NCBI GenBank assembly: GCA_038879595.1
Contig: JAVZTI010000005.1
Location: forward strand, 10,938 to 74,937
DNA: 64,000 nucleotides
Source of the DNA: Desulfurococcaceae archaeon
Lineage (GTDB): Archaea; Thermoproteota; Thermoprotei_A; Sulfolobales; Desulfurococcaceae
Direction of reading: 5' to 3'
A program made the translations under genes and the position numbers. The notes under the pieces were generated by a model. The model saw nothing but the letters and a program-made list of their open reading frames with translations, did no database searches and had not been told where the DNA came from. Shown piece by piece: positions 3,896 to 56,114 of this stretch; the first letter of the stretch is position 1, and each line of letters opens with the position of its first letter.

Positions 3896-4789
3896 TTAAT
3901 TAACCTTGCTACAATAAGTATCTAATACTACTTGGTACTTCCTAGGCCCCACCATTCTAACCACTCTGCTGTAAATTACTTTGCAGTCAAGCCCGTACTC
4001 AATGCATTTACTGTAGAAAGCTTTTTCAGCAACTATCCTTGGATCTTCATTTATGATGGGTTTAACGTGTAGGTATAAGTGCACTATCCCACGATCTCTT
4101 AGTGCCTTAACTGCGTGAGGCAGATATGGTAGAGCTAGATCTGGTAGAGGCATGAGAACTCTATCACTTGTACTAACTAGCTTTTCATCAATTACTCTAG
4201 CTGCGTCACCCAGGTACGGCAGGACTATTCCCTCAACCTTATTTAACAACACGTTATCAACCATGTATTGATATGCTGCTGGATTTATATCTATACTATG
4301 TACAGCCCGCGGCTTAGAGTACTTAGCTATTACTATAGAGAAAGTTCCTACACCAGCAAACATGTTTGTAACTACTTCACCTTCTTTCACAAGCTTCGCC
4401 ACTCTCATATGTTCATAACTCAGCCTTGGAGTTAGAAAGACTTTAGTTATGTCTATTTTAAATAAACACCCATATTCTTTATAAATAGTTTCACTCCTCA
4501 TATCGCCAGCTAAATGGATATAGCTTCTAACTCTATATTCACCCCCTACTCCAGGAAAAGCAGCCCAAACACTCTTTACTCTAGGGACTTCTCTCAGCAG
4601 AGCTTCAGCTAAAGGCCTAAGATCTTTTGGTGAAAGACTGAAAGGCACTTTTATTACAGCAATATCGCCAATGAACTCTACTCTACTCCAAACTCTCTTA
4701 GCAAGATCTTCTCCAAGAACTTCTATAGCCAGCCTCTTAAGTAGAGGAATTCGCCTCCGCCCTTCCTTCACGCTTCCGCCCCTTTTCAC
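3896..4789 (-). CDS. trm5: tRNA (guanine37-N1)-methyltransferase Trm5/Taw22 family (Met-10+ like)
   Basis: Class I SAM methyltransferase motifs NMFAGVGTFSI and DINPAA. A 53-nt overlap with the upstream ORF suggests a later start. Confidence 0.8.
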   Translation of the reverse strand: MKRGGSVKEGRRRIPLLKRLAIEVLGEDLAKRVWSRVEFIGDIAVIKVPFSLSPKDLRPLAEALLREVPRVKSVWAAFPGVGGEYRVRSYIHLAGDMRSETIYKEYGCLFKIDITKVFLTPRLSYEHMRVAKLVKEGEVVTNMFAGVGTFSIVIAKYSKPRAVHSIDINPAAYQYMVDNVLLNKVEGIVLPYLGDAARVIDEKLVSTSDRVLMPLPDLALPYLPHAVKALRDRGIVHLYLHVKPIINEDPRIVAEKAFYSKCIEYGLDCKVIYSRVVRMVGPRKYQVVLDTYCSKVN

Positions 4790-5519
4790 TAAAATACTTA
4801 CACCAGGGCCTTAGTGAACAACTTATGCAGAGGGGTTTCCTAGATCTACATATCTGCCTCCCGTGAGTAATCAATAGGAGGTGGGCTTCAAGGTATTCAG
4901 CTGGCTTAAGGATCTCCATCCAAGTTCTTCTAACATCATAGTAGCTCCTCCTCGAGATCAATCCAAGCCTCTCAGTAATTCTAGCTATATGAGTGTCCAC
5001 TGGAAAAACGCTCTTCCCAAAGTACATCAGTAAGATGACGTCAGCAGTCTTAGGACCTATGCCAGGCATTTCCAGTAAAACCTTATGTGCTTCACTAGGG
5101 TCAGCAGCGCTTAGCAATTGCTTAAGCCTTTCCTCAAAACCTTCCTCTGAAAATAACTTAGCTAACTTAAGTATTACTCTAGCTCTCACGTTATTCATTC
5201 CAGCTGGCTTAATTACGTTAGCTAACTCCTCGACGCTGTAACTTAAGACATGCTTTGGCTCAACTACTCCTCCAAGAGCTCTACAGAGGCTTTCATATGC
5301 TCTAAATGCATTCTTATCACTTGTATTCTGGCTAAGCACTATTCCAACAATGAATTCATAGAGGCTCCTCTTCTTCACTCTAGACACTATGAATTCCTCA
5401 AGATTTATTCCTCCATGCATATCCCTAAGCTTCTCTAAGATAAGCGACCCTAGATCTTTGCTCAAAACAATCACTTTACGGATATATCTTTCCAGGCATT
5501 CTTGGGAAAGGAGTGGCAT
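4737..5519 (-). CDS. nth: endonuclease III-like HhH-GPD DNA glycosylase with 4Fe-4S cluster loop
   Basis: HhH motif LLEMPGIGPKTADVILL, VDTHIARITERLG, and the C-terminal motif CRSRKPLCISCSLRPWC. The start probably lies downstream of the AsnRS overlap. Confidence 0.8.
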   Translation of the reverse strand: MPLLSQECLERYIRKVIVLSKDLGSLILEKLRDMHGGINLEEFIVSRVKKRSLYEFIVGIVLSQNTSDKNAFRAYESLCRALGGVVEPKHVLSYSVEELANVIKPAGMNNVRARVILKLAKLFSEEGFEERLKQLLSAADPSEAHKVLLEMPGIGPKTADVILLMYFGKSVFPVDTHIARITERLGLISRRSYYDVRRTWMEILKPAEYLEAHLLLITHGRQICRSRKPLCISCSLRPWCKYFSEKGRKREGRAEANSST

Positions 5520-26956: not shown

Positions 26957-27069
26957 TACATGCTAGCATCTTACCCTAAGGACAATTATATACTTTAGTG
27001 CTCTATGAATCCACATGCCTTCAGCTATGGAAACATTTGTTGCAACCAGATAGATTCATTTACTCTACA

Positions 27070-27292
27070 ACCATTGCATAAGCCGCTTCTCGGTGGATGG
27101 CTGTTCATTGGCTTTCACTTTCTTTCGTATCCAGCCTCCCAGCCGTCCACTTCTCAACGGCTTGTTCTTACCCAGCCCCGCCTGCGGGAGCGTGTCTCCA
27201 GCGGTTGCCCGTGGTTCATCCAGCTCCCTGCGGTGAAGCTGGGTGCACGAGGTGTCCCCCTCGCCATGCTCATCGAGTTCATCCCTACTCCA
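27070..27292 (-). ncRNA. candidate structured non-coding RNA (unclassified)
   Basis: Hand count gives 106/170 G+C (62%) for 27121-27290, against AT-rich flanks. Several nested helices, including a hairpin whose loop reads GCAA (GNRA) on the minus strand. The G+C-rich block starts about 26 nt from the palindromic TATA box at 27315-27320. ORFs here look non-protein-like. Strand and ends are uncertain. Confidence 0.3.
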
Positions 27293-27314
27293 ATATTGTC
27301 ATACATGTAAATAC

Positions 27315-27320
27315 TTATAA
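27315..27320. promoter_or_regulatory. palindromic TATA box (TTATAA), possible bidirectional promoter
   Basis: TTATAA lies about 26 nt from the minus-strand G+C island edge (about 27291) and about 33-38 nt upstream of the TTG start at 27353. Confidence 0.3.
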
Positions 27321-27352
27321 GCTTTTCTGCAGTATGTTGCAATGGTGGTGGT

Positions 27353-27499
27353 TTGCCAGAGGAGTATGTGTTCCACGTGAGGATCTCGAGGACAAGCCAC
27401 GGCTTGCTCTGCATCTACATACCCAAGCGTCTCAGCGAGAGAATGAAGCACCTGCACAGAAGAGAGGTTGTTGTGCGTGTCACAGTACCAGATGCATAG
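27353..27499 (+). CDS. 48-aa AbrB/SpoVT-like micro-protein (not in ORF track)
   Basis: TTG 27353 (GGTGGTGG just upstream) to TAG 27497-27499: MPEEYVFHVRISRTSHGLLCIYIPKRLSERMKHLHRREVVVRVTVPDA. The I-x-IPK...EV-V-V pattern is AbrB-like, and it is a paralogue of 212..355. Confidence 0.5.
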   Translation: MPEEYVFHVRISRTSHGLLCIYIPKRLSERMKHLHRREVVVRVTVPDA

Positions 27500-28586
27500 A
27501 GTCAGGGATGCGTCAAAGCTAGTAGAGTACGTAACGATAGTTGGGAGGCTTGAACCACTCACCGAAGAAGACTACGTGAAGCTTGTGAGACTAGCACACG
27601 AGTTCAGGAAAGCCGCAACCTACGCTACGAGAATGATTGCTAAGGGCATAGACCCAAATACCGTTCTCAGAGAACTGCGCTCAATGCTTAACAAAGCGTA
27701 CGGGGATTCAGCGTTCAAGCTTGCTAAAGCCATAGTGGAGAGTGCTAGATCAAACAACGGAAACCCGCTGAAGATAGAAATTAGGAGGCTCTTCATAGTA
27801 TCGGAGGGTGAAGCAGGCAGGCTAGGTAACAGAAACGTGAGGTTGGATGACTCCAGCACCGTGAGGATCAGGTATCCGTACGAAAGATCGTGGCTCAGTT
27901 TCAGAGCAAGATTCGGAGAAAACCATGTACCGCTCGTCAAGGAGCTATCAGAGCTTGCTAAATCGAGGAAGTGTAGCTACGGTGCGAAAATAGTTTTCAG
28001 GAAGGGTAGAGTTTACCTTCACTTATCTGTACCCGTAGAGCTCTACTTGAAGTACTTCGGGAGGGGCGAAGCCATAGGGAGCTTAATTGCAGGCTTCGAC
28101 CTGAACAGCGACAGGGTAAACATGGTGATAGTGGATAAGTACGGAAGAGTAGTGGATGTGAGAACAGCTTGGTTCCCCGAGGTAACATCCCCGGGTTACC
28201 CGGGGAGCAAAGCTATGGTTGTTAGGCTTCGAGCTCTAGCAGAGCTACTCAACTACGCATACCACCACGGTGTTGGTGTAGTCGTGTTCGAAGACCTCGA
28301 CAAGATCAAGCAGAGAAGGTTCACCAGTTCACCCACAGCCAACAGGAAGATAACCAGATTCGCAAAGAAACAACTACTAACTCACGCAGTAGTCATGGCT
28401 TTGAAGTACGGGTTGAAACCTGTTCTAGTCGATCCACGAGGAACCACGAGCTCACCCGTACACAGCACTGTGATGAAGAAGCATGGTTTAGATAGGCACA
28501 CAGCGTCAGCTTACCTAATAGCACTCAGATATCTTCAGGACGAAAAGACCGTGAACGGTCACAAAGCACATAAACAATACAAATGA
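27492..28586 (+). CDS. TnpB/OrfB-like RuvC-fold protein lacking the zinc-ribbon insert
   Basis: Motif order GFDLNSD ... VVFEDLD ... VDPRGTTSS ... GLDRHTASAYLIA matches the TnpB split RuvC layout. Only about 12 residues with no Cys pairs sit where CxxC..CxxC normally lies. The ATG at 27492 overlaps the micro-ORF stop (ATGCATAG). Confidence 0.65.
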   Translation: MHRVRDASKLVEYVTIVGRLEPLTEEDYVKLVRLAHEFRKAATYATRMIAKGIDPNTVLRELRSMLNKAYGDSAFKLAKAIVESARSNNGNPLKIEIRRLFIVSEGEAGRLGNRNVRLDDSSTVRIRYPYERSWLSFRARFGENHVPLVKELSELAKSRKCSYGAKIVFRKGRVYLHLSVPVELYLKYFGRGEAIGSLIAGFDLNSDRVNMVIVDKYGRVVDVRTAWFPEVTSPGYPGSKAMVVRLRALAELLNYAYHHGVGVVVFEDLDKIKQRRFTSSPTANRKITRFAKKQLLTHAVVMALKYGLKPVLVDPRGTTSSPVHSTVMKKHGLDRHTASAYLIALRYLQDEKTVNGHKAHKQYK

Positions 28587-28721
28587 ATATCAAAAAGAAA
28601 ACAGCCCATTCATAATTTCTTGACTCTATTAAGTGCATAATGGAGATCTAATAAAGCTGTGTAGGTAAGGTTTAAAAGTATTGCTCATTGATAGTTTTCT
28701 GGAGTACATGGGGTTGCATAA

Positions 28722-50941: not shown

Positions 50942-51673
50942 ACTAAATACCCCATAGAAATATTCTAAGGGACTAAATATAATTCTGCCGCTAACTACTA
51001 AGAAGTGTCTTCATAAAGTGTGAAACACTTTCGACTCATTTCCCCGCTAGCTTTCCATAATCTCCGTAGGTAGCGCTTGCCGCCTCCTTCAAAATGCTAT
51101 CCTTCAATAGTTTTAGCTTACTGCCTCTAGCTAGATCACTGTTATATGATGTTGCTGAGGAAGTTAAGAAAATTGTTGGGGGGCATGACATGGAGAGAAT
51201 ATTTGGAGTAAAGATAAGTACATACTTATGGAAGTTCAATGTAACCTGTATTTCTCAATAAGTGATGTCTCACCGTCATTCACGTTTTCAACATTTAAGC
51301 CCCACACGCTTACTTCTTCAACGATCTCTCTGAAGAGTCTAACAACTCGATCTCGTCACTAAGATCTTCATAGCACTATAGGTCTCAGAACTCATAGCCT
51401 ATAAGCTTTTCAAAAGTAATCAAAAACACTGTATACAAGATAACCACGGGGGAAATAGAGAGGAAAACAGCTCAGAGACCATATGAATTGCTCAATTAGC
51501 TATGTATGTGAAAAGGAGAAAGCGTTAAATGAAAGAAGCACATGACAATGTAGATAAGTACAACGAGTGAATTTCACGACGCCTCTAGTGACTAGAGGTA
51601 CTTGTTTGAGCAACGACCATAGGAATGATGAGTTTTTATATCGGTTAAACCACACCATAGTGGGGGATGATAT

Positions 51674-55864: not shown

Positions 55865-55940
55865 TGCGGCGGCCGGGATTTGAACCCGGGATCTCCGGCG
55901 TGGCAGGCCGGCGTCCTAGTCCAGGCTAGACGACCGCCGC
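55865..55940 (-). tRNA. tRNA-Gly (anticodon GCC)
   Basis: Cloverleaf GCGGCGG...CCGGC-CUGCCAC-GCCGG...CCGGG-UUCAAAU-CCCGG-CCGCCGC-A. No encoded CCA and no intron. Confidence 0.9.
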
Positions 55941-56039: not shown

Positions 56040-56114
56040 GCCGCCGTAGTATAGCCCGGTCAAGTATGCGGGCCTTTCGAGCCCGTGACCCGGGTTCAAA
56101 TCCCGGCGGCGGCA
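56040..56114 (+). tRNA. tRNA-Glu (anticodon UUC)
   Basis: GCCGCCG...CGGGC-CUUUCGA-GCCCG...CCGGG-UUCAAAU-CCCGG-CGGCGGC-A. No encoded CCA, followed by a T-run. Confidence 0.9.

Follow-up and report, generated by a model that had tools for sequence, protein, structure and literature searches.

A structured RNA gene divergent from a TnpB-like nuclease gene within an archaeal mobile element

INTRODUCTION

A 64,000-nucleotide (nt) stretch of a Desulfurococcaceae archaeon genome (GenBank assembly GCA_038879595.1, contig JAVZTI010000005.1, positions 10,938 to 74,937 of the forward strand), referred to here in its entirety as the window, contains a short G+C-rich island at positions 27070-27320. The island lies upstream of, and divergent from, a small open reading frame (ORF) and a gene for a TnpB-like protein. 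The question raised by this locus is whether the island is the gene of a structured RNA that works with the TnpB-like protein, as the original prediction from the sequence had proposed. The window module almost certainly belongs to an archaeal clade, “RHH/MazE-TnpB” (RHH, ribbon-helix-helix), that was called non-mobile and described as having a rearranged catalytic site (Altae-Tran et al. 2023, PNAS, PMC10691335). The same study favored a toxin-antitoxin (TA) role for the clade and sought a guide RNA in its long 3′ untranslated region (PMC10691335). By comparing the window with related loci, we find that the island is very probably the gene of a structured RNA that partners this module, and that the RNA gene, its promoter, the small gene, and the TnpB-like gene move together. 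We lean slightly toward a guide function for the RNA, a reading that draws on sequence features and is weighed below against its alternatives.

RESULTS

The island is a non-coding, strongly folding sequence

With 106 G+C in the 170 nt at 27121-27290, exactly as counted by hand in the original prediction, the island is unique in the window, whose overall G+C content is 40.5% (150-nt windows: mean, 0.405; standard deviation, 0.042). The stretch 27060-27325 is the only one in the 64 kb at which 150-nt windows reach a G+C fraction of 0.56 or more, and it peaks at 0.653. A repeat search within the window found single copies only of the island and of the TnpB-like gene. The sequence 27070-27320 folds better than its dinucleotide shuffles on both strands (z = -5.5 for the minus strand and -5.8 for the plus strand; 0 of 200 shuffles were as good). 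Column entropy by codon phase is flat across the island (0.64/0.67/0.64), compared with 0.25/0.18/0.94 for the adjacent small ORF, and the length differences between homologous islands are not multiples of three. A family search of the ORFs that overlap the island found nothing above chance. Because codon periodicity is absent, insertions and deletions are out of frame, and the ORFs have no family match, we conclude that the island is non-coding; the earlier judgment that its ORFs are not protein-like was sound.

Covariation supports a minus-strand RNA of about 210 nt

We built a covariance model, R1, from seven minus-strand sequences of the window's own subfamily, all from Desulfurococcales. 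R1 matches the window at 27080-27288 on the minus strand with 218 bits. Covariation was then scored for 47 pairs on a model-guided alignment of 74 distinct sequences, using 500 shuffles and five measures. Standard base pairs were formed in 91.9% of the pair cells, compared with 74.2% for shuffled partners and 39-52% for partners slid by 1-3 columns; the first of these figures is somewhat inflated, since the alignment was fitted to the model. Compensatory double changes were found at 40 of the 47 pairs, and the observed value was not reached by any of the 500 shuffles on any of the five measures; the two measures least sensitive to relatedness were likewise above all shuffles. Covariation among homologous loci is a sign of a structural RNA that the original prediction had proposed to look for, and the outcome here agrees with that claim, as do the missing codon periodicity and the above-threshold Rfam matches in homologous islands (see below).

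The structure supported by these data (Table 1) consists of a hairpin, H2; a long helix, P3, that encloses helix P4 and hairpin P5; and a 3′ terminal domain with helices P6a and P6b. H2 is the weakest-supported helix, with 76-85% of cells paired. The core of P3 includes two U·G pairs that are nearly invariant. P4 becomes GGCUC/GAGCC in other subfamilies, and the junction between P4 and P5 is a GA-rich internal loop that, by eye, resembles a kink-turn (K-turn). In the window copy, P6a and P6b are separated by a symmetric UGAGAA/CGAGAA loop. Three of the helices that had been read directly from the window sequence stand up, or nearly so, to this comparison: 27186-27191 with 27223-27228 (P4) and the hairpin that they enclose at 27198-27214 (P5) are both conserved and covarying, and CGAGG/CCTCG at 27248-27252/27259-27263 matches H2. 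The proposed local pairings 27141-27146/27157-27162 and 27095-27103/27132-27139 are not conserved; the comparative data give P6a and P6b instead of the former, and 27092-27103 pairs with 27140-27151 (P6b) rather than as in the latter. RNAalifold, applied to a 29-sequence MAFFT alignment, paired GGCGAGG with CUUCGCC; this pairing was dropped for CUUCGCC/GGCGGGG, which has compensatory changes and a covarying extension.

The same alignment points to the strand of the product. Every one of the 42 alignment rows with a P5 hairpin closes it with a GNRA tetraloop when read as the minus strand, in agreement with the GCAA loop first noticed on that strand of the window, and matches to the Rfam family Sso133 (see below) fall on the same strand. 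When the pairs are read as minus-strand RNA, G·U occupies 403 cells and A·C only 104. Because of the GNRA loops, the excess of G·U over A·C, and the near-invariant U·G pairs in P3, we conclude that the product is the minus strand. Strands of the form (R)UGA(A/G) facing NGA strands recur in the RNA and, by eye, are K-turn-like. Subfamilies B and C show them most clearly, where the 3′ domain begins to pair at its base; in subfamily B, for instance, GCCGU-GAU-GA-A... pairs with ...U-GA-ACGGU. From these motifs we infer that K-turns, and with them the protein L7Ae, may be involved.

The RNA accompanies the TnpB-like gene in distant archaeal orders

We gathered 118 loci encoding relatives of the TnpB-like protein from genome and metagenome collections. 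Upstream sequence was long enough in 81 of them, and 78 of these have a G+C peak at about -350 to -200 relative to the gene; BLAST searches and alignment of the loci revealed conserved blocks at the position of the island. The window and the first 99 loci together contain 83 R1 matches, and another 11 came from the other loci of the collection and from four Sulfolobales loci added later. Gene-adjacent matches are all oriented opposite to the gene and lie 180-400 nt upstream of it. About 80 loci have the RNA, spread over Desulfurococcales, Sulfolobales, Thermoproteales, Thermococci, and further groups, and its diversification parallels that of the protein subfamilies. Taken with its co-insertion with the gene (see below), this constant arrangement at about 80 loci argues for the proposal that the RNA is a dedicated partner of the TnpB-like protein; the caveat that came with that proposal, of a non-canonical position divergent from and 5′ of the gene, was correct. 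A scan of viral contigs found no relatives, and an exact-sequence lookup of protein P0143 gave no match. Elsewhere in the window, a weak, partial R1 match to the 3′ domain at 51251-51321 on the minus strand (18.8 bits; E about 0.002; 39% G+C) is probably due to chance.

Several loci contain extra copies of the RNA: L094 (1276-1452), L087 (3746-3976), L072 (1745-1942), L088 (1513-1685), L065 (2964-3161), and L005 (4794-4978). The extra copy in L087, on the plus strand, is convergent with a different, shorter TnpB-like ORF of 277 amino acids (aa) on the minus strand (4186-5019) that is cut by the contig end.

The orphan small RNA Sso133 is the core of the same family

At gathering thresholds, Rfam models matched only two tRNAs in the window. 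A permissive scan placed Sso133 (RF02814) at 27168-27258 on the minus strand, with 16.6 bits and an E value of 8.2; the gathering cutoff of this family is 44. No C/D, H/ACA, or other Rfam family besides Sso133 matches the island. Hence, the Rfam check outlined in the original prediction revealed no unrelated housekeeping RNA at the island, and it left the window copy below the cutoff of the one family that it did suggest. Rfam lists Sso133 as the orphan Sulfolobus small RNA (sRNA) 133, with neither a function nor a gene linkage (RF02814).

Homologous islands match Sso133 better. The island of the Desulfurococcus locus L024 scores 57.9 bits, above the cutoff, and six other islands have sub-threshold matches in the same place, among them L054 (34 bits), L096 (29 bits), and L046 (28 bits); this sub-threshold chain ties the above-cutoff relatives to the window copy. 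Scores in Sulfolobales are 91.0 bits in Saccharolobus islandicus (L128), 91.3 bits in Acidianus ambivalens (L129), and 65.9 bits in A. brierleyi (L131). These Sulfolobales matches lie 250-320 nt upstream of PF27229 genes, on the opposite strand, and R1 matches the same loci at E values of 7.5e-9 to 6e-7. The consensus helices of Sso133 coincide with P3 and P4, on the same strand. Given the above-cutoff relatives, the common position and strand, and the R1 matches at the same spots, we conclude that Sso133 is the 73-nt P3/P4 core of this RNA family.

The Saccharolobus shibatae B12 locus (L127) has the same gene layout, and the motifs GAUGAACCCGAGGAGC, GAGGGGGAGG, and GGGAGG...CUCCC are recognizable at 1620-1810 on its minus strand. 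This locus has no Sso133 match at an E value of ≤1 and no R1 match at an E value of ≤0.01. Neither model, therefore, spans the full diversity of the RNA family.

RNA and protein genes insert as one mobile unit

At least eight public contigs (L119-L126) were compared with window positions 26957-28721, where a DUF2153 gene and a gene for a 133-aa protein flank the element. They encode the identical DUF2153 protein, have the same flanking genes side by side, 245 nt apart, and lack the intervening element, a presence/absence polymorphism at the level of strains that implies a recent insertion in the strain of the window. Alignment of filled and empty sites defined the insertion site as CATTGCATAAGCC^CCATTCATAA, with no target duplication. 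Independent copies in L001, L002, L039, L041, and L042 have exactly the span of the element in common with the window: similarity extends over about 27083-28606, beyond which the sequences are unrelated. Several near-identical copies lie in such unrelated surroundings. We conclude that the RNA gene, the promoter, the small gene, and the TnpB-like gene insert as one mobile unit.

The plus-strand consensus over independent insertions is R-C-C^element^Y-Y. RCC precedes the island end of the element in all copies, and the flank accordingly begins with GGY in the RNA sense, always. The last helix of the scaffold, P6a, spans the insertion boundary (27084/27085) with its closing strand at 27082-27087, such that its outer two or three pairs draw on nucleotides of the target DNA (27082-27084). 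With the end of the scaffold coinciding with that of the element, a transcript that continued farther would carry the flank as a guide, in the manner of omega RNAs. On the right, the TnpB-like stop codon is only about 19 nt from the element end, which leaves no room for a downstream RNA.

Locus L014 contains, at 1776-2076, a mini-element of about 300 nt in which 42 nt from the right end are followed by the TATA region and the RNA gene, and in which the protein genes are missing. This mini-element has kept both ends and is convergent with a full element about 480 nt away. No Y1 (HUH) transposase gene was found in the element or among the called neighbors of L119-L131; the genome as a whole was not searched. 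A hairpin at 28547-28560, formed by the small, perfect palindrome GACCGTGAACGGTC within the 3′ end of the TnpB-like coding sequence about 45 nt from the right end, was set aside; it is not conserved in L001 or L002.

A proposed common promoter and a small, probable regulator gene

The TATA box between the divergent genes is present as originally described, one base to the right of the position first given for it (27315-27320). TTATAA is kept in 39 of the 40 loci with an AbrB-type small gene, and the first conserved motif of the RNA lies about 30 nt from the TATA box in all subfamilies, a spacing that fits an archaeal start site 22-26 nt downstream. Both observations, and the persistence of promoter and RNA in the L014 mini-element, agree with the proposed divergence from a common TATA box. 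In the AbrB-type loci, the box is the center of an inverted repeat, ACAGAAAAGCTTATAAGCTTTTCTGT, the arms of which agree, on average, in 7-9 of their 12 positions and at most in all 12; the window copy is degenerate, with agreement in 3 of 12. The repeat is limited to loci with an AbrB partner (subfamilies A and B, e.g., L005 and L051). Loci with an RHH-type partner (subfamily C, e.g., L017 and L093) are without it and have the TATA variants TTATAT, ATATAA, and TTAAAT. This distribution suggests that the operator changes along with the type of regulator, and it fits a common bidirectional promoter under regulator control. A scan for sigma-70 promoters was set aside as uninformative for an archaeon.

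Judged by its codon periodicity and conservation, the small ORF downstream of the TATA box is a real gene. Its last 26 nt overlap the start of the TnpB-like gene, counted from the probable GTG at 27474. In other subfamilies, an unrelated RHH-like protein of 50 aa replaces the AbrB-like protein at the same position. Pfam matches for relatives of the small protein are weak and below cutoffs (PF04014, E = 0.047; RHH families, E of about 0.02-0.04). In IS605 elements, the RHH protein Arc acts as a repressor of promoters (Moon et al. 2026, bioRxiv 10.64898/2026.09.24.754181); by analogy, the small protein probably represses the common promoter.

The protein has a predicted TnpB/Cas12 fold

A 100% identical 369-aa protein, P0001, is annotated in a Desulfurococcaceae metagenome-assembled genome. 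An AlphaFold2 model of the protein had a predicted local distance difference test score (pLDDT) of 87.9 and a predicted template modeling score (pTM) of 0.80. Foldseek matched the model to Cas12k (7n3o, E = 5e-9), AsCas12f (8j12, 6e-9), ISFba1 TnpB (8iaz, 1e-6), and ISDra2 TnpB (8bf8, 5e-5), with query TM-scores of up to 0.59. As modeled, the protein shares the WED-REC-RuvC fold of TnpB and Cas12. A set of 27 diverse homologues showed no variation at D203 (GFDLN), E267 (VFEDL), and D334 (GLDRH), and E267 aligns with the VVEDL motif in the RuvC-II glutamate region of Cas12X; the three residues appear to sit in canonical-looking motifs. The model TIGR01766 reached 26.1 bits (cutoff, 32), nothing matched in the local Pfam copy, and a search of PDB sequences gave only a marginal match to Cas12X.

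Table 1. Positions of the RNA, its helices, the genes, and the element boundaries in the window
Feature	Position	Strand	Remarks
Mobile element, 1521 nt	27085..28605 (or 27084-28604, 1-nt ambiguity)		RNA gene, promoter, AbrB-like gene, TnpB-like gene
Structured non-coding RNA scaffold, ~210 nt	27082..27292	-	Predicted 5′ end near 27292; last helix ends at 27082
Hairpin H2, GCGAGG...CCUCGU	27258-27264 with 27247-27254	-	Loop holds invariant GAGGGGGAC motif
Helix P3 (27170..27244), core	27232-27238 with 27176-27182	-	97.5% paired; compensatory change at 5/7 pairs
Helix P3, extension	27239-27244 with 27170-27175	-	Mean stacked pairs, 4.77 vs 2.64 ± 0.2 for shuffled partners
Helix P4, GGGAGC/GCUCCC (27186..27228)	27223-27228 with 27186-27191	-	96.8% of cells paired; compensatory change at 6/6 pairs
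Hairpin P5 (27199..27214)	27209-27214 with 27199-27204	-	GCAA (GNRA) tetraloop at 27205-27208; 5/6 pairs covary
3′ terminal domain (27082..27161), helix P6a	27156-27161 with 27082-27087	-	Compensatory change at 4/6 pairs
3′ terminal domain, helix P6b	27140-27151 with 27092-27103	-	Compensatory change at 12/12 pairs
Flank directly 3′ of scaffold, putative guide segment	27063..27084	-	Similarity between copies stops here
Palindromic TATA box TTATAA	27316..27321		Proposed to be common to both divergent transcription units
Gene for 48-aa AbrB/MazE-like small DNA-binding protein	27353..27499	+	Strong codon periodicity, high conservation
TnpB-like gene, 369 aa from probable GTG 27474	27474..28586	+	Pfam PF27229 SSO2105_N (precomputed)
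Right-flank CC (GG in RNA sense), candidate target-adjacent motif	28606..28607		+1 is C/T in 20/20 tabulated insertions, +2 in 18/20
Two tRNA genes, divergent, ~100 nt apart	55865-55940; 56040-56114	-; +	Sole above-threshold Rfam matches in the window

DISCUSSION

A possible mechanism

We propose that the locus is a four-part mobile module composed of the RNA, a common TATA promoter, a gene for an AbrB/RHH-type regulator, and a gene for a TnpB-like RuvC nuclease. The RNA would be transcribed leftward, on the minus strand, from the TATA box and would fold into a multi-helix scaffold (H2, P3-P4-P5, and P6) rich in GA- and K-turn-like motifs. Transcription past the element end would copy adjacent host DNA and so add a guide extension. 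The TnpB-like protein would then recognize the matching sequence at an unoccupied site, preceded by a purine-purine (mostly GG) motif, and the small DNA-binding protein would act as repressor of the common promoter. The transcription start, the read-through, the binding of RNA by the protein, the target-adjacent motif, and the repression of the promoter are steps that we infer from sequence features. That the island is the gene of a structured RNA partnering the module is very probable; that this RNA guides the nuclease is a reading to which we give a slight preference.

Several observations weigh against a guide function or against parts of the evidence offered for it. The published view of the clade is that of a non-mobile TA pair with a rearranged catalytic site (PMC10691335). 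The protein has no CxxC...CxxC zinc finger: between DPRGTTSS and GLDRH there are about 15 residues and no cysteines. It also reaches only 30.5 of the 100 bits required by the NCBIfam model guided_TnpB. On the side of the RNA, the window copy itself is far under the Sso133 cutoff, the pairing figures carry the inflation noted above, and the K-turn assignments made by eye are imperfect in some sequences. A terminator scan found no terminator-like site downstream of the RNA. The candidate target-adjacent motif is weak, being only a pyrimidine pair on the plus strand. Finally, the first 2-3 nt of the putative guide (GGY) are invariant and are paired in P6a; they may instead belong to the scaffold or to the target site of the transposase.

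Alternatives to a guide function

The alternative that survives best, which we nonetheless regard as unlikely, is a TA or addiction unit in which the nuclease is the toxin, the AbrB/RHH protein is the antitoxin, and the RNA restrains the nuclease or the regulator with no targeting of DNA. A TA role was proposed for the clade from its patchy distribution and its antitoxin-type partner (Altae-Tran et al. 2023, PMC10691335). The overlap of the small ORF with the nuclease gene is as in TA operons, and the holding of the first flank nucleotides within P6a would likewise suit an RNA that does not target DNA. However, the whole unit, including the RNA, is an insertion that has IS200/IS605-like junctions and multiplies to new sites, and the mini-element in L014 retains the RNA without either protein. 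The end of the scaffold exactly at the element boundary would be unexplained for a purely internal regulator, and in IS605 elements AbrB/RHH partners also serve as plain repressors of promoters.

A second alternative concerns the pairings themselves, which might mainly be a single-stranded DNA structure of an IS200/IS605-type left end, read by a Y1 transposase acting in trans, with the transcript incidental. The absence of target duplication and of terminal inverted repeats and the insertion beside a fixed RCC would be expected of such an end. The flank-derived RCC also pairs with an internal GGY across the hairpin P6a/P6b, a pairing that presumably resembles the recognition of the cleavage site in IS608. 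Against this, about 210 nt with six helices go far beyond known transposase hairpins; GNRA tetraloops, GA- and K-turn-like loops, and invariant U·G pairs are features of RNA; homologues are in Rfam as an sRNA gene; the TATA box is conserved at a fixed distance of about 30 nt; and no Y1 transposase was found in the element or among the called neighbors (the genome as a whole was not searched). A DNA role and an RNA role could also coexist for P6. We consider a DNA role for the pairings in place of an RNA to be quite improbable.

It is more improbable still, to a degree that makes it a minor concern, that the island is an sRNA of host type (such as one bound by L7Ae, or an antisense regulator) which the element merely captured or happens to adjoin, with no functional tie to the nuclease. 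Strict synteny with the gene over distant archaeal orders and parallel diversification with the protein subfamilies speak for such a tie, and the RNA is absent from the empty sites. The entry of Sso133 in Rfam only as an orphan sRNA and GAUGA motifs reminiscent of box C elements would be in keeping with a host sRNA, whereas the lack of any C/D or H/ACA match in Rfam would not. We give next to no credence to a decayed protein-coding remnant, for which only the four mechanically called ORFs over the island speak, given the flat codon phase, the out-of-frame length differences, and the compensatory substitutions, and given that none of the ORFs is conserved or has a family match.

With the preference for a guide RNA restated, a broader proposal can be made, which we offer tentatively and hold to be doubtful as a whole. 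The module may represent a distinct lineage of RNA-guided TnpB in hyperthermophilic archaea, with an independent, divergent guide RNA gene at the opposite transposon end, a K-turn scaffold assembled with host L7Ae, a transposase target motif within the closing helix, RNA-only mini-elements that give guides in trans, and a compact, heat-stable, zinc-finger-less nuclease of 369 aa under AbrB/RHH control.

Comparison with known systems

Among published systems, the RHH/MazE-TnpB clade is the nearest in its genes: an archaeal TnpB-like gene that immediately follows a small gene of the AbrB/MazE or RHH type. In contrast to the published description, the module described here is mobile, its RNA is upstream and antisense, and its acidic residues appear to lie in canonical-looking motifs. 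Sso133 is the nearest in its RNA, with which it has in common the P3/P4 core (CUCGAAGGGAG...CUCCCGUAGACGG), the strand, and the place upstream of PF27229 genes; the Rfam model spans only 73 nt of the RNA of about 210 nt. In the literature on PF27229, SSO2105, Sso133, and TnpB together with L7Ae, we found no description of a link between the RNA and the gene, and a paper on RNA immunoprecipitation sequencing with L7Ae does not mention transposon RNAs.

TnpB and its omega RNA in IS200/IS605 elements such as ISDra2 and ISFba1 are similar in several respects. The RuvC nuclease is of the same fold, a scaffold within the element ends at the boundary and leaves the flank available as a guide, insertion occurs beside a short fixed motif with no target duplication, and there are mini derivatives without genes. 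The omega RNA, however, is encoded on the tnpB strand and overlaps or follows the 3′ end of tnpB, whereas the RNA described here is on the opposite strand, upstream and divergent, at the other element end, with a TATA promoter of its own, and this is the end that carries the fixed target motif. The module also differs in that it has no zinc finger, an added AbrB/RHH partner gene, and no TnpA within the element, and in that its scaffold is without similarity to known omega RNA families (Sso133 being the only Rfam match).

The omega RNA of IscB (HEARO RNA) is likewise a large structured RNA upstream of a nuclease gene; it is transcribed from the same strand as the gene and has its guide at the 5′ end. 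The IscB protein differs in combining RuvC with HNH. IS605-family transposons with Arc repressors (10.64898/2026.09.24.754181) are similar in that a TnpB element encodes a small RHH-type DNA-binding protein acting on the promoter of the element itself. They are bacterial and include TnpA, and binding to the promoter is suggested here by the TATA inverted repeat in AbrB-type loci. Archaeal K-turn RNAs that bind L7Ae, such as box C/D sRNAs and RNase P RNA, have signatures that we recognize here by eye, namely a C-stem, a 3-nt bulge, and tandem G·A pairs; unlike them, the RNA lacks a D box and a guide-to-rRNA architecture. Where subfamily B has its example at the base of the 3′ domain, a symmetric UGAGAA/CGAGAA loop is present in the window copy.

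The protein clade was thus already known, and a fragment of the RNA had been catalogued as an orphan sRNA. What appears to be new is the linkage of RNA and gene, the full structure of about 210 nt, its location at one end of a mobile element, and the inverted arrangement with its own promoter. This linkage would provide the missing RNA for a clade that had been read as a non-mobile TA pair with a downstream RNA, and it would give the orphan Sso133 a probable function and a gene partner while extending it from 73 nt to about 210 nt. It would also mean that the architecture of TnpB elements is flexible, in that the RNA gene can invert, gain its own promoter, and move to the other end, an arrangement that bears on the origin of stand-alone guide genes and of genes like those for trans-activating CRISPR RNA on the way toward Cas12. 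If the guide function is true, a zinc-finger-less nuclease of 369 aa from organisms living at about 80-90°C, together with its defined RNA partner, would be a candidate for a compact, thermostable editing tool.

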